48,000 bases of DNA from Myxacorys chilensis ATA2-1-KO14 (GTDB lineage: Bacteria > Cyanobacteriota > Cyanobacteriia > Leptolyngbyales > Leptolyngbyaceae), in NCBI GenBank assembly GCA_019359275.1, contig JAHHHP010000034.1:1-48000 (forward strand), in the 5' to 3' direction. The notes beneath the pieces were generated by a model. It saw nothing but the letters and a program-made list of their open reading frames with translations. It was not told the origin of the DNA and searched no databases. Position 1 is the first letter of the stretch; each line of letters opens with the position of its first letter. Made by a program: the position numbers and the translations under genes. Positions 5,439 through 24,200 of the stretch are shown piece by piece.

Positions 5439-8400
5439 TTTCCGTCAGTTTCCTTACATCACTTCAGGAAGGAATTCTACTGCATCATCTACAGTCCCCT
5501 GAGCAGCCCGATTACGTTGTTCAGCTTAGCGCAGATGTCCGCGACCTTGATTTAGACCGGTGGCGCAGTGCTTGGAATTTTGTTGTCGCACGCCATCCGA
5601 TGTTGCGTACTGCGATTGCTTGGAAGACGCAGCTGCGACCGCTTCAGCTCACTGTGTCTGATGTAGAGATGCCCTGGAGCATTCTGGATTGGAGCAAACA
5701 CCCCCCAGACGTTCAAACAAAGGACTTTGAGGCACTCTTACGAGTCGACCGCGACACTCTCTTCAAGCTCACGCATCCACCTTTGATGCGTGGAATCTTA
5801 ATTATCCTAAGTCCAGGTCGGTGGCGATTCCTGTGGACCTACCACCACCTCATTCTCGATGCTTGGTCATCCTCACTGATTCTTAGTGAGGTGACCGCTG
5901 CCTATCTAAATGAGGTGGTGCCTGTAACTTCCGACGAAGGTATTCCGTTCAAACGTTACGTCGACTACCTTACTGGACTTGACCTGACGGAAGCCGAAGG
6001 TTATTGGAGAAGAACCTTGACTGGAGCGGTTGTCACGCCAATTTGGCATGGTCACGGGGAGGTAGGGAGCACAACCTCGATGCTAGACGAGGCATCATCA
6101 GGGAGACTGACCACCTTTTGTCGCAGTCAGGGTGTGACTTTGGCAACCTTGGTTCAAGCAGCTTGGGCTTTGGTGATTGCACGCTGGAACGGGACATTGG
6201 AGACTATTGTCGGCGTGACCGTCTCAGATCGTCCGTCCGAGATCGACGGGGTGGAACGCATGATTGGTCCATGTATCGCTACCCTGCCCGTTCGCTTGAA
6301 GATCCCACTACAGCAACGTGTGCGGGAGCATCTCGCGGCTGTCCAAGCGGCGGCGGTGGACATGCGAGAACATTCTCACGCCCCGCTCTCGCGTATCCTT
6401 GGCTGGGTAGGTGCGGATGCAGCAAGTGCCCTGTTCGATACCCTGATTGTCTTCGAGAATCTACCCAGTGAACTGAGCGCTCTCACTGGTGACTCGAACG
6501 CGCCTTTCAGCAATCTGCGAAGCGAGTGGTACACACATTATCCACTGACAGTCATGGTTGTTCCTGGTTCGAGGCTGACAGTTCAGATGCGAGCAGCTGG
6601 CGATCAAGCTCTGCTTGACAAATTGGCGGATGCCCTTCTCAAGGGAATCCAAGCCCTGGCACGCGATCCGGACCGTTTTGTGGAACAGGCTCTGGGAGAA
6701 GTCCCAGCCCCCGAGCTGTCGCCCATAGCTGTAGGTTCCTTAAAGCCTGACTATCTTACGACACCTGCACCAGTTTTAATAATGCAGGCTTGCACCGCGT
6801 TTGCAGCGAGTCCAGCCATTGTAACAGCAACGGAAACTGTTAGTTATGACGAACTTGGAGCACGAATCCACCGACTGTCCTTAGCCCTAGCGGCACATGG
6901 TGTGCAGCCAGGCATGCGTGTTGTGGTGCGGCTTGCTCGGACATCATGGCTGCCTGCCGCCCTAATCGGGATCCAAATGGTGGGTGCAGCCTATGTGGCT
7001 TTGGATCCGGGACTACCGCCTGAACGGTTCACTAAATTGATGGTGCGCGCTGGGAGCGATTGGCTTCTCGTCGACCGATCGGATGGCTTTCCTACACCAG
7101 TAGGAATGAAGGTACTGGTCCTCGACGAGTTGGCCGAGGCTGCTGCGGTACCCTTGCCAGCAGTTTCACCGACCGCAACAGCATATATCATCTTTACCTC
7201 AGGCTCTACAGGTCAACCCAATGCTGTAGTAATTAGACACGCAGCCCTATCGAATCTGCTTCGCGCCATAGCCGTGGTTCCGGGTCTCGCAGCAGGCGAC
7301 AGAGTGTTGGCTACTACCACCATAGGGTTTGACATTGCCGTCGTCGAGCTCCTGGCACCTCTGTGCGTGGGGGCGACAGTGCTGCTGTACGATCAGCCAG
7401 TCTCCACAAACCCGCAGGAGGTGATTCAGTTTATCACTGCCACTGCCCCGGACGTCATCCAAGCAACTCCCTCACTTTGGGAGCTCCTGTTTGCTCACGG
7501 CTGGACCGGTAGACCGAGCCTTCGCGCTTGGTCAGGCGGTGAGCGACTATCCCAGGACCTCGCATGGCGGTTGAAGGCACATGCCCGCGAGGTTTGGAAC
7601 CTTTATGGTCCAACCGAAACTACGATCTGGTCAACTGCAGCCCAGATCACTGAGGTGAAAAGTCCCGTAGTGATCGGCAGACCACTAGCAAATACCTCTA
7701 TCGTTCTGCTTGACGACACTGGGAGGCGAGTTAGTATCGGCGCAATCGGTGAAATATGCATCGGTGGTGCCGGTCTGGCTGACGGTTATGATGGAGATCC
7801 TTACCTGGCTTCCCAACGCTTTACTTTCTGGCACAGTGATAGCGGCGTACAGCGACTCTACCACACTGGTGACTTCGGACGTTTCCTTACCGACGGCTCA
7901 CTGCTATACCTTGGTCGCTGTGACCGTCAATTAAAAATTCGTGGTGTACGCGTCGAACCCGAAGAGATCGAGGCTATGCTGCGACAGCATCCCAGTGTAG
8001 CTGCCGCGGCGGTAATTCCCTTCCGGTCTCCACTAGACGGAGACCGAATGGAGTTGGCAGGGTTCGTCCAGATACAGCTAGGAATGCCCGCACCAGATTT
8101 TCGCGATATATGGAAAGCCCTAAGCCAACGGCTGCCGACATATATGGCATCGCTGCGGCTCAAGGTGCTGGACCGCTTGCCTTTATCACCTAACGGCAAG
8201 GTCGACCAGCGCCAGCTAGTGGTCATGGCTGAAGCAGAAGAGCTAGGTGCTGTCCCTACTACAGCCGGGGGCGTACCCATTCTCGAACTAGTGCTCCAGA
8301 TTCTTCGTCACGTGCTGAACCAACCGGACCTGGGCTCCGCAGATGATTTCTTGGCAGCTGGCGGCGATTCACTTTTGGCCATGCGGGTGGTGGCGCGAAT

Positions 8401-9910: not shown

Positions 9911-11364
9911 GTTCCCCATCTCTGCCTGGAGACGCCCAAGCTCGCGCCCGCCTTAAGGCCTATCTTGATGAGAAAGGGCTGCGATTACCAGTGCGGACTC
10001 GGATCCTTCCAACTGCACGCACAGGTCCTTTCGTACAAAGTTTTGCCCAGCAGCGCATTTGGTTTATCGAGCAGGCTATGCCAGGTACCTCAATGTACAA
10101 TATGCCAGAGTGCGCACGAATCCGAGGACACCTGAATTTCGATGCGTTGTGTGAGTCCGTCTGTGCGATTGTAACTCGGCATGAAGCCTGGCGAACAACG
10201 TTTGCCACCCGAGGCGGTGAAGCAGTTCAGATTGTCCATAACCATCAACCGCCTGACATCAGACTGGAGAATACTTCAGAAGATGAGGCAGCAGCACGGG
10301 AACGATTAATCGAACTCTGTGGAATCCCGTTCGACCTAGTCAGTGGTCCGCTAGTTCGTGTCCATGTGCTCGTTCTCTCACCTGACGACTACATAATGCT
10401 GATCAACGTGCATCATCTCATTTCAGACGGTTGGTCAACCGGCATATTTGTGAGAGAGTTTATTGCCATCTATGGTGCCTTGATTGAGGGACGGACTCCT
10501 GTGCTTGATCCGCCAGCACTGCAGTACGGCGACTATGTCCTGTGGCAAAGACAGACGTTGTCGAACACTGGGTTCGACGCCATAGTCAAGCGCTGGGCGG
10601 AGATGGTCGGGCCCTACCAAGGTTACGCCGTCCTTCCGACTGATCGAGCACGCGTAGTGGGCCTGGACGATAGCGGTGAGTTTAGCATGTTGAACCTGAG
10701 CCGAGAGCGGACCAAAGCGCTCAATATTTTGGCACAGAAATTTGGCGTCACCCTGTTTGTCGTGTTGTCGATGGCCTTCAAGCTGGCGCTAATACGCATG
10801 ACTGGCAACTCCAGCGTCTCGCTTGGGGTGCCCGTGGCCGGTCGCAACCGGCGCGAGTTTGAAGGGGTTATAGGGCTGTTCGCTAACACTGTGGTTCTCC
10901 ATACTGACCTCTCGGGCGATCCAACCCTCGCCGATGCTATAGAACGGGAGCGTAAAGCCTGGATCATCACCCAGACTTATCAAGATGTTCCGTTTGAACG
11001 ACTGGTCGAGCAAATCAATCCGCAACGGTCGTCGGTGCACCACCCATTCTTCCAGATTATGTTTATTCTCCAGAACACGCCCATGCCTCCTGTGTTGCTT
11101 CCTAACGCCTCGATTGAGTTCATCGCTACCGGCACCCACTCCGTGAAGTTCGATCTGGTCTTCGAGCTCTATGAAACGGACGAGGGGTTGCAAGGTTGGT
11201 TAGGGTATTTGCGCAGCCTCTTCGACGAGCGGACCATTAGCCGGTTGATCTCCTTATTCAAATTCGTGCTAGAGGATCTCCCTGGTGGTGGTCATCGCCG
11301 CCTGTCGACTATCGGCATCCAGTCCCCTACTAAAGGAGTTCAGGACTTTTTGGAACCACTCTAA
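9907..11364 (+). CDS. Free-standing NRPS condensation-domain protein
   Basis: 'SFAQQRIWFIEQ', 'RHEAWRTTF', 'VHHLISDGWS'. The ATG overlaps the upstream stop (ATGA at 9907-9910). No A or T domain follows. Confidence 0.9.
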   Translation: MSSPSLPGDAQARARLKAYLDEKGLRLPVRTRILPTARTGPFVQSFAQQRIWFIEQAMPGTSMYNMPECARIRGHLNFDALCESVCAIVTRHEAWRTTFATRGGEAVQIVHNHQPPDIRLENTSEDEAAARERLIELCGIPFDLVSGPLVRVHVLVLSPDDYIMLINVHHLISDGWSTGIFVREFIAIYGALIEGRTPVLDPPALQYGDYVLWQRQTLSNTGFDAIVKRWAEMVGPYQGYAVLPTDRARVVGLDDSGEFSMLNLSRERTKALNILAQKFGVTLFVVLSMAFKLALIRMTGNSSVSLGVPVAGRNRREFEGVIGLFANTVVLHTDLSGDPTLADAIERERKAWIITQTYQDVPFERLVEQINPQRSSVHHPFFQIMFILQNTPMPPVLLPNASIEFIATGTHSVKFDLVFELYETDEGLQGWLGYLRSLFDERTISRLISLFKFVLEDLPGGGHRRLSTIGIQSPTKGVQDFLEPL

Positions 11365-12006
11365 TACAACTTGCTCAGCAAACAGACAGGAATTTTGGCT
11401 TGTCCCTTGATAAGTACCATCAATATTAAATGCCTAGAGATAATAGTTGCTGATGCAATCTACTAACCTACTGTTTGCAATTGGGGTAAAAACATACTCC
11501 AACAAATCTGCCTCAAATACTGTTTCATTAACCTTGACTACGTTCACCTGAGTCTGTAAGCAATTTGTATAACCCTGCCATCCTCCCGTACTCGCCGACT
11601 TACAAGACTTCACTTACGTAAATTGAGTGTAACTGAATTGCTCTGCTAGTCTGTGCTCAATTAATCTCTACCATAGGAATGTTGATTAATCCTGGTCGTC
11701 ATGTGCCTCAATTTGAAAGGTTAACTATGTCATTCTCTACTATCTATCTTTGCTAAGGAGCCTTACAAAAATAACTTGAGCAACTCCTGAAACACTTTGC
11801 TTGCCATACAAGGCTTTTAAGGTTTCGGCAGTGCAATTTAAATTTGTAAGGATCCTAAGCTGCTTTCATCGCCTCATCCCTTACTTCATAACTTGAACCT
11901 CATCGTGAATCTTGTAAAGACCAGAAGCAATTATCGTTTAGTAGAAATTTGTCTGACACTGGAATTACAAGAAGAAATAACTTTGAGATATGGAGGAAAC
12001 GAATCA

Positions 12007-12975
12007 GTGGATATTACAAGTTCAAGGCTTGTTTCTGGAGCTAAGTGTACTGTTGCTTATCCTGATATAGAAGCTGCAGCCTTGCGGTTATCTAATCAAG
12101 CTAGTCAGACACCTGTTTTCGTTTCTAGAACTGTTAACCAAATTACACATAGCCAAGTATTCTTCAAGTGTGAGAATTTTCAGCGTACAGGGTCTTTTAA
12201 GTTCCGAGGTGCGTACAATGCTCTAGCCCAGTTATCCGAGGCAGAGAAGCAGAGAGGTGTCTTGACGTATTCATCTGGAAATCACGCTCAAGCGATTGCT
12301 TTGGCCGGAAAATTATTGGGTATTCACACTACTGTTGTGATGCCTGAAGATGCTCCAGCAGTCAAGCAAGCTGCCACTCGCAGCTACGGAGCGGAGGTTA
12401 TTCTGTACAACCGTTTGAAAACTAATCGGGAGATTCTGGGTCAGACAATTGCTCAGGAGCACGGACTCATAGTTATTCCCCCTTATGATCATCCCCATGT
12501 TGTAGCAGGACAAGGTACAGCAGCCAAAGAACTTATCCAGGAGGTTGGCTCACTAGATTTAATGCTAGTTTGTTGTGGAGGTGGTGGACTCCTTTCAGGA
12601 GCTGCAATTGCTGCGAATAAGCTGTCACCGAGCTGTAAGATTATCGGGGTAGAACCGGAAGCTGCTAATGATGCTACCCGCTCATTTCATACCAAGATGC
12701 TGTATGAAATTCATAACCCTAACACCGTTGCTGATGGAGCCAGAGCGCCCTCCTTGGGTCAAGTAACTTTTCCTTTAGTATTACGCTATGTTCACGATAT
12801 GGTGACCGTTTCTGAGGAAGAAATTCAACGCACTGTAGTGTTCTTATGGGAGCGAATGAAGATTGTTGTAGAACCTACAGGAGCAGTAGCAGCGGCTGCA
12901 TTACTGGGAGGTGTAGTTGCTATGCCGAATAGTAGGATTGGTGTAATTGTTAGTGGAGGGAACGTAGATTTATAG
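12007..12975 (+). CDS. PLP-dependent serine/threonine dehydratase family protein (short form, serine-racemase/TdcB-like size)
   Basis: PLP-lysine motif 'GSFKFRGA', plus 'YSSGNHAQAIA' and 'CCGGGGLLSG'. The likely start is GTG 12007, 9 nt after GGAGGA. The ORF-track start 11893 adds an implausible leader. Confidence 0.8.
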   Translation: MDITSSRLVSGAKCTVAYPDIEAAALRLSNQASQTPVFVSRTVNQITHSQVFFKCENFQRTGSFKFRGAYNALAQLSEAEKQRGVLTYSSGNHAQAIALAGKLLGIHTTVVMPEDAPAVKQAATRSYGAEVILYNRLKTNREILGQTIAQEHGLIVIPPYDHPHVVAGQGTAAKELIQEVGSLDLMLVCCGGGGLLSGAAIAANKLSPSCKIIGVEPEAANDATRSFHTKMLYEIHNPNTVADGARAPSLGQVTFPLVLRYVHDMVTVSEEEIQRTVVFLWERMKIVVEPTGAVAAAALLGGVVAMPNSRIGVIVSGGNVDL

Positions 12976-13072
12976 CGATTTTGAAGCTCATTAGTTTAAT
13001 ACAGGTATGCTATTTCGCTCAATATTCAAGCTTTAATTCTGACACTTTCACCTAATCCCAATTTGGTATAAG

Positions 13073-13612
13073 TTGAGGATTGATAGTGTCTTGTGGGCTC
13101 GGCCAGCAGTAGGCAGTCTCATTGAGCAAGTTAGTGGCGTAGAGATGCCGCTGCTTAGGACAAGAGTACGATGGGTATGGACTCAAGCTCCACTTGCTCA
13201 CCAACGACAAAGGCAAGTTGCTGGCGTTTCAATTAACGAGTGTTACTGTTCGATAACCGAGTGCCCGTGCCGACCCTGACGTAGGAACTCATCGGTAAGC
13301 TCTTTGGCGAGCGGGACTGTATTTCGCAAGCCTTGTTTACGCAACTGTGGCTACGCGGTTTGCAGTTAGTCACTAAACTCAAAAAGAACATGAAAAATCG
13401 CTCGATGCCGCTGTTGGACAAGATTTGATTGCGTAAGCTGAGCGATTATCGAATCAGTCAGTAACCAGTTGAAGAACATTTCTCAAATTGAGCATTCTCG
13501 TCACCGTTCTCCAGTTAACTACTTGGTCAATCTAGTTTGTGGTTTGATTGCCTATTGTCATCAGTTGAAGAAGTCCTGCCTCATACTTGATACCTCTTTG
13601 CCTGCGTCTGTT
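13073..13612 (+). pseudogene. IS982-like transposase remnant, 5'-truncated and multiply frameshifted
   Basis: Pieces across three frames: 'YGLKLHLLTNDKGKLLAFQLT', 'LIGKLFGERDCISQALFTQLWLRGLQLVTKLKKNMKNR', '[43 protein letters not shown]'. Confidence 0.7.
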
Positions 13613-13654
13613 TGACCCGAATTCACATTAGGTTAAGTAAATTTAAAGAGATTG

Positions 13655-13809
13655 CTCAATTTTGCAAAGCCTGTGCTATTGTTCACCCATCACTAAAAGT
13701 TTTTCACATTAAGTTCCTTACAGTTGCTTATCCATCTCTAGAGCTATCACAACACAGTTTCCGGCAGTCTCTTCTCCCGACCCAACTGCATGCAATGGAG
13801 GCATTAATA
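13655..13809 (+). pseudogene. Relic of the 3' end of a second radical-SAM/SPASM gene copy
   Basis: Nucleotide similarity to 15515-15652, the 3' end of the intact rSAM gene. Examples: '...cacagtttcc..cagt..cttc..cccaact.c....aatggaggcattaataATG' versus '...cacagttccc..cagt..cttc..cccaaact.c..aatgggggtattgtaATG'. The read-through peptide '...KACAIVH...HSF...MEALI' parallels '...KPYCGVH...SSF...KMGVL*'. Confidence 0.6.
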
Positions 13810-14214
13810 ATGGCAACAAGAGATTTTGCACGAGCTCTACTTAGAGAAGTTCCATTGGCCCATATTGAGGTTTATATTCAGGTTCTCAACGATGGAATCT
13901 TAAGAGAACGTGATGAGAAAATGGCTGACAATGGCACAATTTGTGGTGGTGGCTGTGATGCGAAAGGTGGTGCCTGCGGCGCGTGGTGCGCGCAAGCTGA
14001 TAACTATTGGGGTTGCTTTGACATCCAAGGTCATTCAGGCGTAACTAGAGAAGATTTCCAAAATGCTGTAGACAATCCGAATGCGTTCCGTCAGGCGCTC
14101 AACGAAGAGCTGATGGGCGTTGTGCGGTCAGTAGATAACCTAGGAGAGAATAGCCAAAGTGCACCTCACCTCGGACCGAAGATTAACCCCAGACTTTGGG
14201 TCAATCGTGGCTAA
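13810..14214 (+). CDS. Five-cysteine ~134-aa protein, paralog A (candidate radical-SAM substrate)
   Basis: ATG lies 8 nt after GGAGG (13797-13801). It is roughly 80% identical by eye to the 15653-16045 product. Core 'CGGGCDAKGGACGAWCAQADNYWGC' spans 13942-14016. The 200-aa ORF-track version reads through the rSAM relic. Confidence 0.8.
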   Translation: MATRDFARALLREVPLAHIEVYIQVLNDGILRERDEKMADNGTICGGGCDAKGGACGAWCAQADNYWGCFDIQGHSGVTREDFQNAVDNPNAFRQALNEELMGVVRSVDNLGENSQSAPHLGPKINPRLWVNRG

Positions 14215-14240
14215 GGCTTGCGTAATGTAAACCTGCATGA

Positions 14241-14282
14241 CTTTGAAGTTCCCAGGGTACGTACTGCTCCCTCGCTTCAAAG
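14241..14282 (+). promoter_or_regulatory. Stem-loop just downstream of paralog A, conserved in position after paralog B
   Basis: Outer stem CTTTGAAG (14241-14248) / CTTCAAAG (14275-14282) and inner stem AGGG/CCCT. No U-tract follows. Confidence 0.4.
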
Positions 14283-14456
14283 AGGGTAAGCATGAGGAAA
14301 TCGCTAACCTAATTGTGTTTAGCTTGCTTTGATTGCGTGAATGTTAGATGTGCAAAAGGTTCTTCGGTACATAAGGTGTGCTTGATTCACTTAGTTTTGC
14401 AACTTTGGAACTCAAGACTATCAGCTCACAATATTAAGCAGAAGGAGTTGGTTATT

Positions 14457-15653
14457 GTGGACAAAAGTAGCTTGATGGCGAAAACAGTAGAGCCGAACCA
14501 TCCTTCCCTTCATCGCCTTGCCATAATGCTCACTGAGGTTTGTAATCTCGCTTGTCCCTACTGTTACGAACATCGCGACCCGGAGATTTTCTACAATCCA
14601 GATCCCCATAAGCGGACGATGACGGAGGCATCGGTCATCGATATGCTCGAGCGAGCTTACAAGATCTGGCCACGAATTAGCACTCTATTCTTTTTCGGTG
14701 GCGAACCCCTGCTCAAGCGTAAGCTCATCCGTCAAATCTGTGAGGTTGTTGAGGCCGGTAGTATTCCCGGTATGGGAATTAAGCCGAAATATGCCATGAT
14801 CACCAACGCAACCCTGCTTGACGAAGATGCCCGGGAGATGGTGCTCAAGTATGACTTCGGTTTGAATATTAGCTTAGACGGTCCGCCGGTAGTAAATGAC
14901 CTATCACGGATTGATAGGCATGGTCATGGCACATCCTCGCTCTCTATGCAGAACCTAGCCAAATTGCGCGATGCTGGCGGTACTTATCACATTGAGGCTA
15001 CATTCTCGCGCTTCCATCTGGAGGCTGGGGTCACCGTTATGGACTTAATGGACTATTTTAATTCTGAGCATGGGGTAAGGGTTCTGCATGCGCCTTGGGT
15101 ATCGGCTACTCCGGATAACCGTTACTATTTGACTGACGACGAGATCGTTGAGTCTTATATTCCAGCAATTCGTTATTCCTTAGACAATTTGCGTAAAGGA
15201 GTGCCAAAGGTTATCTTTTTGGTCGACCATTGGCTGCAAGTACTGAAATCTTATGACCCTATGGCACGCCGCGCTTACTGTCCAGCCTTTTTCTCAGATT
15301 TGTCGATGAATCCGGCAGGAGACATCTACCCTTGCTTCATGTTCAACGGATACCAGTACTTGAAAATGGGCAATGTTTATGACGATCAGTTTTTTAAGAC
15401 AATGAACTGGTCAGTTGGCAGAGCCTTTCAAGAAGCTATTTTTGGGCCTTGCGATTGCCCAACTGAGTATCAGGCATTCCATTCCGGCTGTGTTGGTGCC
15501 GACCGGATCGCCACCAATTCTATTTTAGCGAAGCCTTATTGTGGCGTTCATACTCGCCTCCTAGAGGCATTCCTCGAAATGCTTATGGAGGATAGCAGCA
15601 CAGTTCCCAACAGTTCCTTCCACGCCCAAACTACTAAAATGGGGGTATTGTAA
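14457..15653 (+). CDS. Radical SAM enzyme with C-terminal SPASM/twitch-like Cys-rich extension
   Basis: 'CNLACPYC' (CX3CX2C, 14541-14564), 'FFFGGEPLL', 'ITNATLL', 'ISLDGP'. C-terminal region: 'CPAFFSDLSMNPAGDIYPC' (GX4C), 'CDCPTEYQAFHSGC', 'YCGV'. The likely start is GTG 14457, 9 nt after AAGGAG (alternative ATG 14475). Sequence upstream of that is homologous to the non-coding tail of copy 2. Confidence 0.9.
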   Translation: MDKSSLMAKTVEPNHPSLHRLAIMLTEVCNLACPYCYEHRDPEIFYNPDPHKRTMTEASVIDMLERAYKIWPRISTLFFFGGEPLLKRKLIRQICEVVEAGSIPGMGIKPKYAMITNATLLDEDAREMVLKYDFGLNISLDGPPVVNDLSRIDRHGHGTSSLSMQNLAKLRDAGGTYHIEATFSRFHLEAGVTVMDLMDYFNSEHGVRVLHAPWVSATPDNRYYLTDDEIVESYIPAIRYSLDNLRKGVPKVIFLVDHWLQVLKSYDPMARRAYCPAFFSDLSMNPAGDIYPCFMFNGYQYLKMGNVYDDQFFKTMNWSVGRAFQEAIFGPCDCPTEYQAFHSGCVGADRIATNSILAKPYCGVHTRLLEAFLEMLMEDSSTVPNSSFHAQTTKMGVL

Positions 15654-16045
15654 TGGCAACAAGAGATTTCGTACGAGCTTTGCTCAAGGAAGTTCCGTTA
15701 GCCCATATTGAAGTTTATCTTCAGGTTCTTGATGATGGAATCCTAAGAGGACGTGATGAGAAAATGGCTGACAACGGCACCTTTTGCGGCGCTGGCTGCG
15801 ATGCAAAAGGTGGCGCTTGTGGTGTATATTGCGCGCAAGCTGATAACTATTGGGGCTGCTTTGATATCCAAGGTCAGTCTAGCGTGTCTAGAGAAGATTT
15901 CCAAAATGCTATAGAAGATCCGAATACGTTCCGTCAGGCGCTCAACGAAGAGCTGATGGGTGTTGTACGGTCAGTAAATAGCCAAGATGAACCCCACTTG
16001 GGGCAGAAAGTTGTCCCCCGACTCTGGGTCAATCGTGGCGAATGA
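15653..16045 (+). CDS. Five-cysteine ~130-aa protein, paralog B (candidate radical-SAM substrate)
   Basis: The ATG overlaps the rSAM stop (TAATG). All five Cys are conserved. In the core 'CDAKGGACG' the two paralogs differ at 6 silent codon positions and at no amino acid. Confidence 0.85.
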   Translation: MATRDFVRALLKEVPLAHIEVYLQVLDDGILRGRDEKMADNGTFCGAGCDAKGGACGVYCAQADNYWGCFDIQGQSSVSREDFQNAIEDPNTFRQALNEELMGVVRSVNSQDEPHLGQKVVPRLWVNRGE

Positions 16046-16069
16046 GTTCGTAATCTAAACCTATGCGCC

Positions 16070-16103
16070 TGAAGGGTTAGGGCGCGTACTACCTCCCCCT
16101 TCA
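16070..16103 (+). promoter_or_regulatory. Stem-loop downstream of paralog B (counterpart of 14241-14282)
   Basis: Stem TGAAGGG (16070-16076) / CCCTTCA (16097-16103). It shares the TGAAG/CTTCA core with copy A, but the stem is extended on the other side. Confidence 0.4.
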
Positions 16104-16290
16104 AAAAGGGTAAATTCTGGGAAATCGCAAGCCTAATTATGTTTAGCTTACTTTAACTGGGTAATGCTAGGTATGCCAAAGCCCTTTAGTACGTAAAGTA
16201 TGTTTGATTCACTTTTTTATTGAGTGAACTCTTCCCCCTAGCTCGAATTCGGGTGTTGCATACTAGGGAATGATGATGTGGGACTAAGCC

Positions 16291-16973
16291 ATGAACTGCC
16301 CCCGCTGCGCCAGTGACAAAATCGTGAAGAATGGACATCGCCACGGCAAACAAAGCTATCTCTGCCGAGACTGTCAGCGCCAATTTCGGGAGAATCCATC
16401 ACCGCAAGGCTATAGCTCTGATGTCAAAGACGTGTGTGTGAAGATGTCGCTCAATGGCATGGGGTTTCGGGGAATTGAGCGGGTCACTGGCATTAATCAC
16501 AACAGTGTCGTCAACTGGGTGCGCCAAGCAGAAGCGGCTATCCCAGACGAAGACTATGAGATTCCAGAAACCGCTCAAATCGACGAACTCCAAACCTTTG
16601 TCGGGGCTAAAAAAACAAAGTCTGGCTCTGGACAGTCGTGAATACAAAGTTGCCCGGCATTCTCAAGTTCATCGTGGGCAACCGCTCATTGGAGACGTTT
16701 CGGAGGCTCTGGCAGAGGATTCAAGGGTGGGCGTGTTTTTTGTATATCACCGATGGCTACAAGGTCTACCCCTGCTTAATTGATGATGCCGACCATCTGG
16801 TGAGCAAGACGGCGATGACTCGGGTGGAAGGAGAAAATTGTCGATTACGCCATTACCTAGCACGCTTGCACCGCCAAACGCTCTGCTACTCCAAATCGGC
16901 GGAGATGTTGAGGGTATCCGTGCGATTGTTGATCTACTATCTCCAGCATCACCAGATTCCTCGATTTGCCTAA
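16291..16973 (+). CDS. IS1-family transposase InsA / InsAB' (requires -1 programmed frameshift)
   Basis: The first frame has a zinc finger 'CPRCASDKIVKNGHRHGKQSYLCRDC' plus HTH. A -1 slip on the A-run gives '...GAKKNKVWLWTVVNTKLPGIL...ITDGYKVY...' (DDE part), continuing in the 16638-16973 frame. Confidence 0.85.
16609..16615 (+). promoter_or_regulatory. A7 slippery site for -1 ribosomal frameshifting in the IS1 transposase
   Basis: A run of seven A (gct AAA AAA Aca) sits exactly where the two transposase frames overlap. Confidence 0.7.
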
Positions 16974-17006
16974 GTCATTCTCTCTTTTGCAACACCCGAA
17001 TTCGAA

Positions 17007-18290
17007 TTGAAAAAAACATCTAGCCAAAATTATTTGCGCGTTTGGACGAGTAGGGTTTCACCTCAGTTCAATATCGGGATTCCTCGGCGGAAAGCTTTGC
17101 TAATGGGCGAAAGCCTTGCAGTGAAGATTACGTCGCAGCGATGGAAAGGCATGGATTGGGTTCATGAATTGCAACTTTTCAAGCCTTCGACTTATTCGTC
17201 TAGCCAGTCCCAAGGCTTGTTGTTCTTGAGCGGTGGTGCTCAAGGGGGAGATGCTACTCACCGCAATGAGGATGCACGATTTGAGGGTGAGTTGACCCTA
17301 TTTGCCATAATTGCTCAGGAGACCAGCAGTATTGTTGGAGTTGTCTCCCATACCCTATGTCAGCCTATGTTCGGTGGTCTTGGTGAGAACGAGTTAATCT
17401 CCCATAGTTTTAGTCAATTTTTGGCGTCGGGACGTCCCGACTGGCCGGTGCTATTACCGATGGTAGGTGCAGTACGTCGGGCTATGGATGTCACCCAAAG
17501 GCTAGCTACCGACACTTGGGCTGCTAAGGTCGAGCAGTTTACCTTAGCTGGATTCTCTAAACGTGGTTGGGCTGCTTGGCTAACGGCTGCTGTGGACGAA
17601 CGTGTAAATGCCATCGCCCCTATTATGATGGATTTCTTCGACCTACCACGACAGATTACCTGCCAACGCTCCGTCTGGGGTAGCTTATCTCCTGCCCTGC
17701 AACCGTTCGAGACTCTAGATATACCAAACCGTTTGCAAACATCGCGGGGTCAACAACTTCTCGATATGGTGGATGTTGTCCGCTGGACTACTTACTACAA
17801 CGTTGCACGAGCGATCATATCTGCTACAAACGATGAATATTGTCCGGTTCAAGCCTCAAATCTCTACATTGAGCAAATTCCTGGAAGAAGTTATCGCTCG
17901 ATGATTCCCAATACTAGCCACGGTTCATTGGCCTACGTAGAAATTCTTGGCATAGTCGGGGCGCTTCATCGACAAGTGGCCTTGGGAGAGGTGATGCCTA
18001 ATTTAACAGGCAAGGCCTGGATTGAGGACGGAGCACTCTGCATTATGATGACCTCCAATGCTGCCCCTATTTTTAAACTTTGGATTGCACATGCGCCTAG
18101 CCTCGATCTCCGAAACTCTCTATGGTCGCCGATCGAGCTGTTTGGTGAAAGCAAAATTCGGATTGCGCTACCGGTGCAAGGTATCATGGCGATTTTTGGG
18201 CAAGCGAAATATAACAAGACTTGGGGATGCTTTGCGTTAACTACCCAAGTTTGGACTGTTGGTCCTCAAGGGTTAATTGAGGTAGCATAG
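17007..18290 (+). CDS. PhoPQ-activated pathogenicity-related (PqaA-type) alpha/beta-hydrolase-like protein
   Basis: 'ITSQRWKGMDWVHELQLFKP', 'LLFLSGG', 'AGFSKRGWAAWLTAAVDERVNAIAPIMMD'. Assignment is from memory of the PF10142-type pattern. The start is uncertain (TTG 17007 or ATG at codon 33). An in-frame TAG lies upstream once the IS is excised. Confidence 0.55.
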   Translation: MKKTSSQNYLRVWTSRVSPQFNIGIPRRKALLMGESLAVKITSQRWKGMDWVHELQLFKPSTYSSSQSQGLLFLSGGAQGGDATHRNEDARFEGELTLFAIIAQETSSIVGVVSHTLCQPMFGGLGENELISHSFSQFLASGRPDWPVLLPMVGAVRRAMDVTQRLATDTWAAKVEQFTLAGFSKRGWAAWLTAAVDERVNAIAPIMMDFFDLPRQITCQRSVWGSLSPALQPFETLDIPNRLQTSRGQQLLDMVDVVRWTTYYNVARAIISATNDEYCPVQASNLYIEQIPGRSYRSMIPNTSHGSLAYVEILGIVGALHRQVALGEVMPNLTGKAWIEDGALCIMMTSNAAPIFKLWIAHAPSLDLRNSLWSPIELFGESKIRIALPVQGIMAIFGQAKYNKTWGCFALTTQVWTVGPQGLIEVA

Positions 18291-18533
18291 ACAGTCTGAT
18301 CGGTTAAGGTTCATATGGAAGTGAAAAAATCAGATTTTCACGTGGAAATAGAAGTAAAACTCTTTCAGATTTGAGCAGCAATCGATGGGTTCTATCGCTT
18401 AAGGGATAACTGAGTTGCTCACTGTCATCTAGCATCCGTTTCAGCAACTGACCATTGCGTTACTTAATTAAAAGTATTATGCGGTAGTTCATTGAGGTAT
18501 TTCTCATCTGGACAAGGTGAATTTATAATTAAT

Positions 18534-18564
18534 AACGAAGAGTTTGCTGAACAAACCCTTCGTT
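18534..18564 (-). terminator. Candidate intrinsic terminator after sbnB (minus strand)
   Basis: Hairpin AACGAAG-A-GTTTG [CTGAA] CAAAC-C-CTTCGTT, followed on the minus strand by the T/A-rich 'ATTAATTATAAATT'. It lies 36 nt downstream of the stop at 18600. Confidence 0.5.
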
Positions 18565-18599
18565 GTGTGATCGATAGACACTAGATTCCTAGGTTCTCG

Positions 18600-19643
18600 T
18601 TATCGCTCTAAATCGTAGAAGAATTCAGGAATCTCAAGATACTCGCCTGTAGCAATTGCACGGTCATATATCCATTTCCCCAAAGCAAGATCGAGAATTC
18701 CGAGTCCGAATGGTGAAAACACAACGGTACGATTCCGTTGTATTATGCACTTGCCCTCTAGGACGTCAGCAAGTGAGCCAGTAATAAAATCTCGTGATCC
18801 TGCCAGCTTTTCGGCCAAATGTAGGGATGTGTGGGCATTCATTACATGATGAACGTCATCAACAATGTTGCAGGTATTAAGAAGCAATTCGGGAGCAAGA
18901 TCACGAAGTGAGACATGTAGAATAACAGGATGATGCTCAAAAAGTGCATATTCATGTACGTGCGGTTCTGAAGCAACTGTCGCGAATAAAACTAAATCTG
19001 ATTCTCGTACAACCGAAGTAAGAGTAGGGAACACAGATATGGATGTGTGCTGCTTAAGCTCGCAAACGCACTCAGCAAAGCGTTGAGCTTCTCTAATATT
19101 GGTGTCGTATATACGAACATTGCTGATATTCCAGCCCGTTCCTATTAAGAAACGATAGATATAGCGTGATATAAAACCTGCACCAATGATCCCAAGCGTT
19201 TGCACTTTGCGTCCACCTGTCAGGTGTTCTGCTGCAAGTCCAGCGAATGCAGCAGTTCGAGCCGCTGAAATGATCGACGCCTCCAGGCATGCAAACGGAT
19301 AGCCAGTTTCGCCGTTATTAAGAATTAGCACAGCGGAGGCACGCGGAATACCGTTGACGATATTGTCGGGATAGCTAGCAATCCACTTTATACCAGAAGT
19401 ATGCCAAGGATATTCAAGATACGAAGGTAATGCAATGATACGCGCATTCGGTTTATCACGAAAATTCAGGAAAAGGCTGGATGGATTAACGCTGTGTTCT
19501 CTCGAGTGAGCAATGTAAGCATCACGTACAATCGTGATGCAGCCCTCAAGGTTTTCATTAACGAGGCGATGTACTGTACGCCCAGTGATAATCGAGAATG
19601 TGAATGAACTAGATGATTCAGAACAGGAATTGGGATTGGACAT
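18600..19643 (-). CDS. sbnB: SbnB-like NAD-dependent dehydrogenase (ornithine cyclodeaminase/mu-crystallin family) for L-2,3-diaminopropionate synthesis
   Basis: 'RIIALPSYL...SGIKWIASYPDN...RASAVLILNNGETGYPFACLEASIISAARTAA' parallels the remembered S. aureus SbnB 'RIIAMPSHI...SGIKWIGS...RASGVIILNDPETNYPIAVMEASLISSMRTAA'. It is adjacent to an SbnA homolog. Confidence 0.8.
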   Translation of the reverse strand: MSNPNSCSESSSSFTFSIITGRTVHRLVNENLEGCITIVRDAYIAHSREHSVNPSSLFLNFRDKPNARIIALPSYLEYPWHTSGIKWIASYPDNIVNGIPRASAVLILNNGETGYPFACLEASIISAARTAAFAGLAAEHLTGGRKVQTLGIIGAGFISRYIYRFLIGTGWNISNVRIYDTNIREAQRFAECVCELKQHTSISVFPTLTSVVRESDLVLFATVASEPHVHEYALFEHHPVILHVSLRDLAPELLLNTCNIVDDVHHVMNAHTSLHLAEKLAGSRDFITGSLADVLEGKCIIQRNRTVVFSPFGLGILDLALGKWIYDRAIATGEYLEIPEFFYDLER

Positions 19644-19656
19644 ACATTACACTAGC

Positions 19657-20637
19657 CTATGCATTGTCAGTAGCATTCACACGCCACTCAACCCAACGAC
19701 GGTTAAAGATGTTATTAAGGTAAGCGTTGCCACGGTCACAACATAGAAACAAGACACGGGGTCGAGTACGCTGGTTCAATTTGGCGAAATATTGCTTGAT
19801 AGCGCTGTAAGCGCTGCCACTGGAACCACCTACAAAGAGACCATATTTCTCAAGTAGTTCATGGCAACCTGCGATGGTTTCGACTTCGGATACTAACACA
19901 ACCTCGTCAATGAGGGCGTGTTTAAGTAAAGGGGGTATAATGCTTGATCCCAAACCAGAAATCCAACGTTTATACAGTGAATGTCTGAAGATTACTGACC
20001 CCTCTACGTCTACTGCAACAATTCTGATATTGGCATTATGTTCTTTGAGTCGTTGAGATACACCGGCTATGGTTCCAGCCGAGCTAACACCTAAAAATAC
20101 GTAATCGATAGAGGAAATACTCTGCCAAATTTCCTCGCCAGTGAGATGGTAATGAGCCTCCATGCAGTCAGGGTTACCATATTGATTAGGCCAGTATGAG
20201 TCAGAGATTTCGCTTTTGAGCTGCTGAACTTTGCATAAACGTGACTTCAAGAAGCCACCAGTATCATCGTGGTTTTCAACTTTAATCACGCGGTCACATT
20301 GCGAGCGTAGCCAAGATTCATACAGCGGCGATATATTCGGATCAATAACCGGAATAAAATTAATTTCTAGCATTTTTGCTAGTGTGGCTATTGCACAGGC
20401 AAAGTTACCTGAGGAAGACTCAATGATAGTAGTTTGCGATTCGATTTCACCACGTTCGATAGCACGCTTTAAAGTCCAAAGAGCTGGTCTATCCTTGATA
20501 CTGCCAATACCGTTAAGATATTCGAGCTTTGTAAACAAATCTATATGGTTGTTTGTCAGTTGAATAACAGGTGTAGGGCAAATGATTTTCTCCACAACTG
20601 CAAGTCGTTCAACAAGCCCTTGTGCTAATGCCGTCAT
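19657..20637 (-). CDS. sbnA: SbnA-like PLP enzyme (cysteine synthase fold) for L-2,3-diaminopropionate synthesis
   Basis: 'FTKLEYLNGIGSIKDRPA', 'IESSSGNF', 'VIDPNISP', 'TGGFLKSRLCKVQQL', 'YWPNQYGNP', 'IVAVDVEGSVIF', 'CDRGNAYL'. These are close to the remembered SbnA blocks, and the length is 326 aa. Confidence 0.85.
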   Translation of the reverse strand: MTALAQGLVERLAVVEKIICPTPVIQLTNNHIDLFTKLEYLNGIGSIKDRPALWTLKRAIERGEIESQTTIIESSSGNFACAIATLAKMLEINFIPVIDPNISPLYESWLRSQCDRVIKVENHDDTGGFLKSRLCKVQQLKSEISDSYWPNQYGNPDCMEAHYHLTGEEIWQSISSIDYVFLGVSSAGTIAGVSQRLKEHNANIRIVAVDVEGSVIFRHSLYKRWISGLGSSIIPPLLKHALIDEVVLVSEVETIAGCHELLEKYGLFVGGSSGSAYSAIKQYFAKLNQRTRPRVLFLCCDRGNAYLNNIFNRRWVEWRVNATDNA

Positions 20638-21265
20638 AGCAAGCCTTAAAGCCTTAACTTATCACAATCAAGGTCGCAGTAAAAATAATACAATAAGAAA
20701 TTTCTTGTAGAAGTCAGTTAAGTAGTTCTGTCCTTCTAGGTTTGTTAATTCTTGGTTGTCCTGCAAAACACTAATTGGATTATCACTATATAAATTATAG
20801 CCTCATCATTTTGAGATAATCGTTTTTAGTTAATGTGATTCCATTATTAACATAACAGTATGGTGAATCAACTGAGAATCTATTGAAACAAAACCTCATA
20901 GTTGAAAGCTGTTGTTGATAGATTTTCTCCAACAACACACCATAACAACTCAAGCTAGTGAATTTGCAAAATACTAAGAAAACTGTTGAAAATGGCACTA
21001 TTGTAAATTTTTTTTGAGGTTTACTAACTGCCGTATTTTGAATAATGAGGCTTGTAGAATGGCTATATTGCTACTTTTAGATTTTCTGTCAGCTCCTCTT
21101 CTAGAGAGGTGGCTTGTCTAAAAAACTGCTTCCTTTAAAGATTGTCCAAGCCCCATTGTTACTAAGAACTATCTAAACTATTGTTGAAAATTTTTACAGG
21201 TGGTTTCTTACACTTTGCGCACAGCCCCTACCACTGTAGTTGTTGAGAAGGAGTAGTCCTGGGCA

Positions 21266-24200
21266 ATGAGCATCAACCTTCATGAGAATGGGGTAATTGC
21301 TGCACTTCTGCGCCACGCTGCGCGCAATCAGGACGCAATCGCCTTTCGGGTCGTTGATGGACAAGGCGAGGTAACCGAATTGCTTACCTATGGACAGCTT
21401 ACCCGGCGGGCTGGAGGCACAGCGGAGTGGATTACCCAGCAAACCCCACCGATGAGTCGGATTGTGCTAGCCCTGCCAACTGGCACTCAATTCCTTGTCG
21501 GGCTGTTTGGTACCTTGATGTCCGGCCGGACGGTCGTACCAGTGCTTGCGCCACGGCACCGTAGTTCGACCCGTTTTCTCTCAGTTCTGAACGACTGCAC
21601 TCCCAGTTTAGTTCTTGTGCCACCCGATGCTGTCAACGCTACAAGAGCCATCACGACGGTGGGTGAAATCAGAACGTTGGATGATGACCTAGTTGCAGAG
21701 CCCTGTCCAGAATTCGTCGAACCATCTGCGACGGCGGTCATTCAATATAGCAGTGGTAGTACTGGCAATCCCCGTGGGGTCTTAGTTAGGCATGAAAGCA
21801 TAGTAGCCAACAGTAAAATGATATCCGCTGTTTTCGGACACGATGTGGACTCCGACTTCGTAAATTGGTTACCGCTGTTTCATGACATGGGCCTTATCGG
21901 TGGCGTCATTCAGCCTGTAATGCTTGGATCTACCTGTACATTAATCCGCCCGGGCGACTTCGCGGCGCGCCCGCGGTTGTGGCTCGAGGTAGTTTCACGC
22001 TTTGGTGCCCACACGAGCGGCGGACCAGACGCAGCTTACCGACTTTGCACCCAAGCGATCGAAGATGGTGCTGTGGAGGGGCTAGATTTATCTCGCTGGC
22101 ACGTTGCGTTCAATGGTTCCGAGCGTGTCTACGAGACGACCTTGCGGAACTTTGCTGCGCGCTTTGCCCCAGCCAACTTCTCCTCCCGAGCATTTCTACC
22201 CTGCTATGGACTCGCCGAGGCAACTCTGCTAGTTTCTGGCGCCGCCTGGAAACCCGACCAGCTAGCACATCGTTTCGACCGGGCAGCGTTAGAGAGAGGA
22301 GAAGCGGTACCTGCAGCCGTTGGAATTGAGTGTATGGCGCTCGGGGCTCCTGCCCCAGGACTTGAGTTGGCTATCGTCAAGCCGAATCAGGGAACATCCC
22401 TGCCTCCAGGGCAGATCGGAGAAATTCGGGTGCGTGGCCCTAGCATATCAAGCGGCTATCACGGTAGACCACCAGATTGCATTGATGCGTGGAAAAGTAC
22501 CGCCGACTTGGGCTTTCTATACAAAGGAATTCTGCACGTTTTAGGGCGCTTAGACGATGTCATCATTCAATTCGGGCGAAATCTTTTTCCTGACGATATT
22601 GAGGCTGCAGCAGGTGCCGGATCAGCCGATCGAGGTTGCCGGATGGCTGCGGTTGACGTAGAGGGACAACTGAATCTCGTCGTCGAAGTCAGCAAGCGGC
22701 GTGAGCTAAATACCCTACAAGCTATGGCATCGGAGATGTCCGTCACGGTCAACACTACCCTGGAAGCAGTGGTGGATCGAGTCGTCTTTCTGCGTCGCGG
22801 TACGCTGCCCAGAACCTCCAGTGGGAAGATCCGGCGTTCAGCGGCGGCTCAGATGCTGCAGAAAGGCGAGGTGGATGTTCTCGCAGCTTTCACCCTGCTA
22901 GGTCCAGCAGGTAAAACCATAGCGGAGCGGGTATCCACCTTTTTGAATTTCTCAAGCACCGAACTCGATCGCCACATCAGTCTGGCAGCGTTGGGCTGCC
23001 AGTCCATGCAAGCCTTGGTTCTACGTCACGTGCTCGAACAGGATTATGGCCTTGCACTGCCAGCGGATCAGTGGCTGACCGACCTTTCGATTAATGAGAT
23101 AGAAGCTCTAATCGCTAGACAGAGCCAATTTGTGGTAGCCACTGAAAGCTGTATACCTCAACCCGATCCTCGTCTGCTAGTCCTGGCTCAATATGCTGCT
23201 GCCCCCGATATCGGTGCGCTTAACATTTCCTTTCTAGTGCATGCTGAAGGTCCAGACGTGGGTCCCCGTCTAGCTCGGGCCACAACTTCTGTAATTGGGC
23301 TGTATCCGGCCTTGCGACGTGCTCCTATTGCAGATGACTCTATTGCCGGCGGTATGCGCACTGTGGCCCGTGCGCCGGTGCAAGTCAAAGTCGTAATGAA
23401 CCCACCAGAGGCACTAGATGCCGAGATTCGGCGACCTTTCCGGTTGGAGCGAGAGGCACCATGTCGAGCGACGGTTTATGATCAAGGTGATCGAGCCACA
23501 CTGTTGCTAGTAATACATCATGCTGCTAGTGACCTTGTGTCGGGGGCGATTTTAGCGCGGCAACTAGCTCAGTCCTGGTCCGGGGTCCTGGTGAGTCGGG
23601 GTCCTGAGAGCCCAGACCAAATTGCGTTCATACCAGCCGCTGCGGTTGGCTATTGGCAAGCCCGTCTCACTGATCCACCGCCGATATTTAATGACAGTCG
23701 TCGTCTCAGCGCCGGTAACATGATCTCGGTCGTAGTCCCAATCCCTTCATCGGCACTACACCGTCGAGCACGTGCATTGAGAGCTACCGAGTTCGAGGTT
23801 TGCCTCGCCGCCTTTGCCCAAGCAACGGCACGTGTGTTTAGTCGTAAGCGTCTGGCGATCCTGACACCAGTCTCACAGCGCAAGGCAGATATGGAGGTAG
23901 TTGGCAATCATGTTTTGCCGGTTCCGATCTTTGTAGACGATGCCATGAGCGGCGATTTTGCAACACTGATATCCAATATTCGGGCGAGTTTGAGGCAGGG
24001 AACTCGGTACGGCGGTCTGCCCGCTGCAGTAAGCTTAACTGAACGTACGGCAGGTTCACTGTTTTTCGATTTCGCATTTGTGTGGCAGCAGATCCCCTCT
24101 GATGCGACAAACTCGCTCGCTGCTTTAACTCTGCCAAGCTTCGGTGCTTGTGCTAAATTCGGTGACCTTACTTTTGAGCGGCCTAGTTTTGCGTTCACAC

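Follow-up and report, generated by a model that had tools for sequence, protein, structure and literature searches.

Newly found peptide crosslinks come mainly from radical S-adenosylmethionine (rSAM) enzymes that carry a SPASM domain. To our knowledge, the known crosslinkers of this kind act almost exclusively on short leader-core peptides, with the enzyme QhpD and its substrate QhpC as the standard exception. In the QhpC protein, three Cys-to-Asp/Glu thioethers are installed by QhpD (PMC10114670, PMC11951088), and PapB is reported to link Cys to Asp or Glu (PMC9413430). Here, we analysed a 48,000-nt stretch of the cyanobacterium Myxacorys chilensis ATA2-1-KO14 (assembly GCA_019359275.1, contig JAHHHP010000034.1, positions 1 to 48,000; hereafter, the window), in which an rSAM gene lies between two paralogous genes, A and B, for small Cys-rich proteins. 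A first-pass annotation of this DNA had put the three genes forward as a candidate undescribed rSAM-modified protein system; our results support that proposal, with the modification itself staying a candidate. We put at roughly one in two the probability that the enzyme crosslinks the Cys loop of its small partners, most probably via thioethers and in a QhpD/QhpC-like manner, a reading built on sequence and analogy. The pair would then represent a second, much more widespread set of such systems, whose target looks like a small folded protein that is sometimes exported through the twin-arginine translocation (Tat) pathway.

The rSAM gene and its small-protein partners

The enzyme gene occupies positions 14475-15653 of the forward strand (392 aa, counted from the first ATG). 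Paralog B follows on the same strand (15653-16045, 130 aa), its ATG overlapping the rSAM stop codon TAA in the sequence TAATG. This overlap, pointed out in the first-pass annotation, was verified in the open reading frame (ORF) listing and by direct translation, and to judge from it paralog B is translationally coupled to the rSAM gene. The product of B is identical to the NCBI hypothetical protein KME43_13900 of the same organism, a cyanobacterial metagenome-assembled genome (MAG). Paralog A precedes the enzyme, again on the forward strand (13810-14214, 134 aa starting MATRDF; a GGAGG lies 9 nt upstream). The start at 13655 given earlier falls inside a longer, mechanically called ORF (from a TTG at 13612), and homologs favour 13810 instead. 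The motifs listed in the same annotation were all recovered, namely CNLACPYC and GGEPLL in the product of 14475-15653 and, in both paralogs, the C-x3-C-x6-C-x3-C-x8-C block and the PRLWVNRG tail.

As far as sequence comparison can tell, the small proteins are a new family, absent from the catalogues searched. The first-pass annotation had allowed for their falling into a known family, and none was found in Pfam, NCBIfam, PADLOC or the PDB or by Foldseek: neither paralog matched a Pfam or NCBIfam model at E up to 1, and the 37 family members gave nothing at E up to 0.1 beyond scattered single chance matches. Thus, A, B and the 37 members fell outside the SCIFF, sactipeptide and Nif11-NHLP precursor models; the SCIFF, Nif11/NHLP and QhpC models are presumably contained in Pfam and NCBIfam. 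PADLOC gave no match to the small proteins, sequence-profile searches of the PDB returned chance-level matches only, Foldseek against the PDB yielded zero fold matches for both predicted models, and a scan of the GTDB genome collection produced no confirmed relative. No description of the family was found in Pfam (2025), NCBIfam 20.0 (2026), the PDB or the full-text-searchable literature.

Close homologs of the small proteins number only 12; among them C45, C49, C56 and C60 (B numbering) are invariant, and two members have His or Ser in place of the fifth Cys. When 1.84 billion cluster representatives were searched with a profile, family clusters being defined at 50% identity, 42 matched at E up to 1e-3, nearly all of them single-domain proteins of 87-193 aa; three are much larger and matched over a short stretch only. 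The small members share an N-terminal helix (LAxAxLREIPLxQL), a Gly/Cys loop (CGxGC...GxxCGxxC) and an invariant Asp in [IF]DxxGxxG[LI]T (D71 of B), after which comes a further helix. We define the family by the LAxAxLREIPL helix, CGxGC(...)CGxxC, the [IF]DxxG Asp, the following helix and an adjacent rSAM gene, and both paralogs show all of these features. Across the family the Cys count ranges from 2 to 6 (mode 4), arranged in CxxxC units, and many members read CGxGCGxGCGxxC, a C-x3 repeat. Members are assigned to a cyanobacterium, a Bradyrhizobium and an Anaerolineae MAG.

The AlphaFold2 (AF2) model of B, built on 51 sequences, reached a mean predicted local distance difference test score (pLDDT) of 79.3 and a predicted template modelling score of 0.72. 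Confident helices span residues 2-13, 16-28, 80-88, 90-109 and 122-127 (pLDDT 86-95), and the Cys loop, about residues 40-70, is unstructured (pLDDT ~50). Because the helical bundle is predicted with confidence, the model suggests a small helical protein bearing a Cys loop rather than a leader-core peptide. Residues 70-83 of B (window 15860-15901), reading FDxxGxxG[LI]TxxDL, bear a weak resemblance to a calmodulin EF-hand loop. An EF-hand reading of FDxxGxxGLTxxDL was not adopted, given E values of ~0.1 with no stretch significant alone, and the similarity may reflect only a helix-loop-helix resemblance. Two other candidate features were dropped as well: a conserved PapB-type CX3D motif, since C60-AQA-D63 occurs in A and B and is not kept among close homologs, and a Cys-Trp cofactor like cysteine tryptophylquinone (CTQ), since W59 is kept in the close clade only and is Tyr in paralog B.

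Turning to the enzyme, its residues 23-30 read CNLACPYC (CX3CX2C), and the three cysteines are invariant in an alignment of the window enzyme with five family rSAMs (two close, three distant). The hidden Markov model (HMM) search proposed in the first-pass annotation placed it in the radical SAM superfamily (Pfam Radical_SAM PF04055, 57.5 bits against a cutoff of 29.5), and no maturase model reached its cutoff. Pfam also matched Fer4_12, and SPASM (PF13186) scored 20.8 bits, just under its cutoff of 21.5. The seven-Cys motif of SPASM domains runs CX9-15GX4C ... CX2CX5CX3C ... C. The distant family rSAMs carry CxxCx5CxxC in this region; the window clade carries F..PCDCPxEYQxFHSGC, with the first Cys lost, His in place of the third and one additional Cys two residues past the second. 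In NCBIfam, the top match of the window enzyme was PapB (NF047865), at 123.8 bits against a curated equivalog cutoff of 340, and the next was QhpD (TIGR03906), at 94.8 bits against 453 and with an alignment that begins only at profile position 91; the enzyme thus belongs to neither family. After these came DynA, then the model of ScfB-related orphan maturases (78 bits) and the SCIFF maturase (77.5 bits, cutoff 425). The PapB model scored five relatives of the window rSAM at 120-201 bits, again below 340, and was the best NCBIfam match of all six family rSAMs compared (the window enzyme and five distant ones), followed in varying order by QhpD, the SCIFF maturase and the Nif11-type rSAM maturase, with DynA for the window enzyme. 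The best-matching enzyme families are mostly thioether formers, the exceptions being the Nif11-type and DynA.

The closest PDB match of the window enzyme is CteB (5wgg), with an alignment only from CteB residue 98 onwards. [quoted passage not shown] The window rSAM starts ~10 residues ahead of the rSAM core and has no N-terminal RRE domain; the DNA upstream of it is duplicated 3' flank, and we do not class the enzyme among RRE-dependent maturases. As the alignments stand, the window-clade rSAM is atypical, being RRE-less and having altered SPASM cysteines. It has only 14 close relatives, 59-100% identical, among 5.8 billion proteins, with the next ones dropping sharply to 31%. A role in defence was considered and dropped because the PADLOC match to the rSAM amounts to generic viperin-model similarity only.

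Small-protein and rSAM genes keep close company well beyond the window. Co-occurrence was scored at loci with readable flanks, several contigs ending too near the gene (e.g. that of L017 and the P0121 contig). At every readable locus, comprising about 12 close and 6 distant ones, an rSAM homolog adjoins the small gene. In the close clade, the small-protein gene follows the rSAM gene (L001-3; L004-6, a group that includes Bradyrhizobium sp. GM5.1; L007; the P0007 contig; L014; L015; L016; L018-L021), with identities of 48-81% for the small proteins and 59-77% for the rSAMs. Distant members (17-35% identity) are also rSAM-paired (L008, an Anaerolineae MAG; L009; L010-13; L024); in L010-13 the small gene precedes the rSAM, and in L024 a SPASM C-terminal fragment lies upstream of the small gene. 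The reverse test, from the independently chosen rSAMs P0033 and P0040 (28-31% identity), revealed a family member at most 15 nt downstream of each, 90 aa long in L026 and 171 aa in L028. The first-pass annotation had suggested checking whether homologs occur without a neighbouring rSAM, and among loci with readable flanks there is no counter-example, the two rSAM picks being paired as well. Judged by this gene order, the coupling of the pair is tight and spans deep divergence.

In four members a twin-arginine signal precedes the entire conserved domain: SRRQFLK in L028 (6423-6938), a perfect twin-arginine motif, TRRTFLG in P0119, DRRKVIK in P0079 and DRREIIK in P0083. The partner rSAM of P0079 (L021) belongs to the window clade (64% identity) and has the same PCDCP...FHSGC motif. 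Paralogs A and B have no N-terminal extension and hence no Tat signal. Because Tat carries folded proteins and the entire domain is exported, the exported product would be the small protein itself, and because the signal precedes the whole domain, the N-terminal helices are probably not a disposable leader. The partners also differ at their other end. Those of RRE-less rSAMs (window, L001, L006, L007, L021) carry a 25-aa C-terminal tail resembling LGPKIDPxLWVxRG, and those of RRE-bearing rSAMs (L008, L009, L010, L026, L028) are tail-less; the mode of substrate recognition would thus appear to have shifted together with the RRE/tail change.

Duplication and genomic neighbourhood

Paralogs A and B are 80.6% identical (E 7e-74, tblastn of B against the window). 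Their alignment covers 129 codons, 78 of them without any difference, 30 with synonymous changes only and 21 with non-synonymous ones (dS 0.56, dN 0.088, dN/dS 0.16, the synonymous and non-synonymous divergences and their ratio). These codon-difference counts, together with dS and dN/dS, argue that A and B are old, genuine coding genes under purifying selection. The first-pass annotation had argued for purifying selection from the segment encoding CDAKGGACG, and the two copies do differ there at exactly 6 silent positions with 0 residue changes. The similarity extends beyond the genes, as 13750-14392 aligns to 15596-16214 (blastn, 77.7% over 645 nt). The repeated unit consists of the last ~57 nt of the rSAM ORF, the small-protein gene and ~170 nt of 3' flank, and because it includes all three, paralog A is, on this alignment, a segmental duplicate, copied from the gene usually found after the rSAM. 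Consistent with this origin, a relic of the rSAM 3' end is found at 13750-13809 (forward strand, matching the final ~57 nt of the rSAM ORF at 70% identity); it is non-coding, now forms the 5' leader of paralog A and contains its GGAGG ribosome-binding site. A degraded second rSAM gene upstream of A was rejected, as tblastn finds none in the window. Related loci nearly all have a single small-protein gene, located downstream of the rSAM. In L017 two such genes lie in tandem (67-447 and 491-670), the second being 47% identical to B over residues 40-98.

The duplicated 3' flank of copy A (14215-14392, forward strand) is 73.6% identical to the homologous flank of paralog B (16046-16214, forward strand) over 182 alignment columns, and the similarity ends abruptly past 14392/16214, dropping to 29% beyond. 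The flanks are thus more alike than the synonymous sites of the coding part (~60% identity), and both carry a CCCTC...GAGGG-type hairpin; no Rfam match and no canonical terminator were found in either. Upstream of the duplicated unit, a gap of ~775 nt (12976-13749) separates it from the gene for an enzyme dependent on pyridoxal phosphate (PLP) and is without a convincing ORF, an Rfam match or a promoter-like site above shuffle expectation. Likewise, the Rfam scan of 12900-17100 gave no match, and neither promoter nor terminator candidates exceeded the number expected from shuffled sequence.

Downstream of B lies an IS1-like element (16243-17005, forward strand, 763 bp; Pfam Zn_ribbon_InsA and DDE_Tnp_IS1). 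Its terminal inverted repeats, 16243-16273 and 17005-16975, are 87% identical and are described as TCGAATTCGGGTGTTGCA; no clear target-site duplication was seen around it. The element separates B from a PhoPQ_related (PF10142) gene for a candidate hydrolase (17007-18290, forward strand, Pfam 237.9 bits), which begins 1 nt past the right repeat and whose product is ~10 N-terminal residues shorter than its L014 homolog. The earlier statement that no protease or exporter gene is adjacent is therefore literally true, with the reservation that the PhoPQ_related gene lies just past the insertion. In L014, the homolog (49% identity) stands directly after the small gene, in the order WbuX-like PP-loop protein, rSAM, small protein, PhoPQ_related; no PhoPQ_related gene occurs within 10 kb in L001, L006 and L007. 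A WbuX-like protein is also encoded in the window (1720-3960, reverse strand, 746 aa), with a PP-loop amidotransferase N-terminal domain (TIGR03573, 94 bits against a cutoff of 203) and a 390-aa C-terminal part that matches no family. Because its L014 homolog (about 1-1323, 45% identity by tblastn) is directly upstream of the rSAM, this protein is possibly a further member of the cassette.

The cassette lies within a nonribosomal peptide synthetase (NRPS) cluster (window 4108-46563), a context that the first-pass annotation did not bring up. Among the cluster genes are SbnB (18600-19643, reverse strand, TIGR03944, 391 bits) and SbnA (19657-20637, reverse strand, TIGR03945, 374 bits), both above cutoff and assigned to 2,3-diaminopropionate (Dap) synthesis, and the PLP enzyme (11893-12975), above cutoff for threo-3-hydroxy-Asp ammonia-lyase. 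The NRPS gene at 21266-26104 encodes two AMP-binding, two PP-binding and one C domain together with a DIP2-like AMP domain, an order that we read as FAAL-T-C-A-T. The remainder of the cluster comprises a phosphopantetheinyl transferase (PPTase), a C-A-T-C module, a free C domain, a C-TauD fusion, a HAL/aminomutase-type enzyme, a pentapeptide-repeat protein and an AsnB-type enzyme, as well as a 4294-aa ORF, segments of which match the L001 and L006 NRPS genes at 39-41%. We take this gene set to resemble the clusters for beta-hydroxy-Asp lipopeptide siderophores. A 221-aa ORF (4773-5438, forward strand) extends from the end of the PPTase gene, which it overlaps, into the first NRPS gene; its product has no Pfam or NCBIfam match.

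The GC content is 44-49% across an accessory block at 10001-22000, against 51-57% across the NRPS genes on either side. The block contains the free C-domain gene, the PLP enzyme, A, the rSAM, B, IS1, PhoPQ_related, SbnB and SbnA, as well as the first ~750 nt of the NRPS gene at 21266-26104. The P0007 contig (JGI 3300047160) has the order rSAM, small protein, SbnB/SbnA, PhoPQ_related, and a second rSAM protein of 658 aa is encoded just downstream of the last (genes at 6140-8116). NRPS genes of L001 and L006 are 38-41% identical to those of the window, and their rSAMs 73-75%. In L007, where the context is a Tc-toxin and a transposase, and in L008, L009, L026 and L028 there is no NRPS nearby. Because of these five loci, the pair is best described, as far as gene context goes, as a self-sufficient module whose link to this type of NRPS cluster recurs and is not universal. 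In L026 (5001-8691), from a widely sampled organism with one contig of 3.6 Mb, the rSAM gene and its 90-aa partner sit between cobS and cobT. There the pair is followed by an Asp/Glu racemase and then by a PLP dehydratase-family gene whose product is 31% identical to that of window 11893-12975.

Proposed maturation and competing readings

In the maturation that we favour, the rSAM/SPASM-type enzyme would act in the cytoplasm on the small protein encoded beside its own gene, with A and B as two paralogous substrates in Myxacorys. It would install intramolecular, Cys-derived thioether crosslinks in the Gly/Cys-rich loop (CGxGC...CGxxC), which is predicted to be held in a small helical bundle, between its N-terminal and its C-terminal helices, and the invariant Asp (D71 of B) would be a candidate acceptor or recognition residue. 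The end product would be a crosslinked small protein of ~90-135 aa, with no peptide excised; in some lineages the folded product would be exported via Tat, and in Myxacorys, lacking a signal, it would stay in the cell. Three points here are our inference: the role of the small protein as substrate, thioether formation as the chemistry and the participation of D71. Crosslinking is suggested by the nearest characterised enzymes (PapB, QhpD, CteB/SCIFF and GggB), by the varying number of CxxxC units combined with the duplication of substrate-like gene copies, and by a small protein that is predicted to fold and is sometimes exported. The tight coupling of the two genes and the purifying selection on both paralogs count in its favour as well.

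Several observations speak against it. Four nearly invariant Cys in Gly-rich turns could equally bind a metal or an Fe-S cluster, and Tat export is also typical of cofactor-bearing proteins. The chemistry may differ from that of PapB and CteB, because the window clade is RRE-less and has lost two canonical SPASM Cys, and kinship does not fix the reaction, because all HMM scores lie far under the family cutoffs. Moreover, no CX3D-type motif is conserved across the family.

An alternative is a classical RiPP precursor, in which the N-terminal helices are the leader and the C-terminal ones a follower, and PhoPQ_related excises the crosslinked Cys-rich peptide, to be released or passed to the NRPS pathway. 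The PhoPQ_related gene does stand directly after the small gene in L014, nearby in P0007 and past IS1 here, the close clade is often found in NRPS clusters, the N-terminal domain of the distant rSAMs aligns with the RRE region of CteB, and the N-terminal motif LAxAxLREIPL is conserved. We nevertheless consider a precursor of this kind unlikely: in the AF2 model the helices of both termini come together in a single confident bundle, conservation past the Cys block is no lower than within it, and the Tat signals precede the supposed leader, so that an exported product would keep it. In addition, most loci are without a protease or transporter, and PhoPQ_related is missing within 10 kb from three of them (L001, L006, L007). 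The same cysteines could instead make the small protein a metal or Fe-S partner of the enzyme (a reductant, or a cluster or sulfur donor), with the rSAM substrate elsewhere, for example an NRPS-bound intermediate. The four Cys in two GxxCGxxC units, the Cys loop left unstructured in the apo prediction, the placement of the RRE-less window-clade rSAM inside an NRPS cluster and the common use of Tat export by metalloproteins fit such a partner. Even so, it seems very unlikely, as a standard cluster site cannot be built from the mere 2 or 3 Cys that some members have, Tat-exported members could not remain with a cytoplasmic enzyme, and L007, L008, L009, L026 and L028 offer no NRPS or other obvious substrate pathway. 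The nearest relatives of the enzyme, moreover, are almost all peptide or protein modifiers, the listed exceptions being AhbD (heme b synthase) and viperin.

The remaining question concerns the NRPS cluster. The pair might be a self-contained mobile cassette whose location in such clusters is incidental, with no role for the nonribosomal peptide, a view that we regard as possible and yet doubtful. Pairs occur away from NRPS genes and near mobility genes (L007 with its transposase; L008 and L009, with transposase/HTH_Tnp nearby) or simply without NRPS (L026); the P0121 contig, on which the gene upstream of the small gene is cut at the contig end, carries an integrase; and IS1 abuts the cassette here. 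The low GC at 10-22 kb (44-49% vs 51-57% in NRPS genes) and rSAM identities of 73-76% between hosts whose NRPS genes share 38-41% point the same way. On the other hand, the close clade meets NRPS-cluster genes in at least two, possibly three, separate contexts: the window, the mutually similar L001-3 and L004-6, and P0007, which shows only SbnA/B and PhoPQ_related. In L001-6 the pair lies beside an NRPS of the same FAAL-T-C-A-T architecture as that at 21266-26104, and the window and the P0007 contig both have SbnA/B and PhoPQ_related as neighbours. In a further reading, the crosslinked small protein of the RRE-less clade would be a working part of a nonribosomal, siderophore-like pathway, which strikes us as rather improbable. 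It could then serve as a scaffold or carrier for the making of a building block, surrounded by the activities of the PP-loop amidotransferase-like protein, the PhoPQ_related hydrolase and the Dap-synthesis genes, or else handle metal for the product or confer immunity to it; the rSAM, whose auxiliary-cluster ligands are rewired (Cys to His, new CDC), would perform a chemistry unseen in SPASM enzymes. If true, this would establish a protein-level link between ribosomal and nonribosomal peptide biosynthesis.

Comparison with described systems

Measured against described families, the pair is, from its sequences, a putative rSAM/SPASM-type maturase with a Cys-rich target, for which every known-family test (PapB, QhpD, QhpC, precursor) failed. 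The QhpC/QhpD analogy drawn in the first-pass annotation is reasonable in the sense of "works like", given that thioether formers supply the nearest HMMs and that the presumed substrate resembles a small folded protein, and does not extend to family membership. As in our proposal, QhpD is an rSAM/SPASM enzyme that crosslinks Cys in a small protein which stays a protein, and it is the second-best NCBIfam match of the window enzyme. However, the window small proteins show no similarity to NCBIfam models or to PDB entries, which presumably include structures of quinohemoprotein amine dehydrogenase (QHNDH), and no QhpA, QhpB, QhpE, QhpF or QhpG-type gene was identified in those window ORFs that were scanned. 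Nor is there reason to expect a CTQ-type cofactor, because Trp is not conserved across the small-protein family.

PapB with PapA (freyrasin) and other ranthipeptide systems likewise have Cys-rich substrates, and PapB is the best match of six family rSAMs; the window family, however, lacks a conserved repeated CX3D motif, and whereas PapA-type substrates are leader-core peptides, the partner here is a 90-135-aa, predicted helical protein with a central loop. The SCIFF system shares Cys-rich targets, and its CteB (5wgg) is the closest solved structure, but the SCIFF maturase model scores the family rSAMs at only 77-167 bits against a cutoff of 425. The window small proteins are also 2-3 times longer than SCIFF peptides, carry conserved helices before and after the Cys block and match no NCBIfam model, including that of the SCIFF peptide, which we take to be TIGR03973.

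Among enzymes acting on proteins, the anaerobic sulfatase-maturating enzyme (anSME) is comparable as an RRE-less rSAM/SPASM enzyme that modifies a protein and not a leader-bearing peptide, and it appears among the PDB and NCBIfam matches. It is nonetheless a weak match to the window enzyme (70 bits, cutoff 349), converts a single Cys or Ser by oxidation into formylglycine without crosslinking, and works on a CxPxR motif that, like a sulfatase gene, is absent from the window system. The rSAM maturases for CXXX-repeat targets (TIGR04115), a family for which we know of no experimental characterisation, recall the C-x3 repeat of many family members, but their model reaches 44-81 bits against a cutoff of 350, and does so for the distant rSAMs only. 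Beyond rSAM enzymes, bufferins are small signal-peptide proteins whose Cys are modified before export and which are not cut to a short peptide, as we propose here; they differ in having an MNIO/DUF692 enzyme in place of an rSAM and Sec rather than Tat signals. Their DUF2282 domain, which we assume to be represented in Pfam, was not matched by the small proteins. What distinguishes the present set from all of these is the combination of a protein-sized substrate, predicted to be helical, Tat-exported members, an RRE-less clade, rewired SPASM ligands and a location in an NRPS cluster, and its RRE-bearing and RRE-less enzymes, paired with partners of the same fold, offer a natural comparison.

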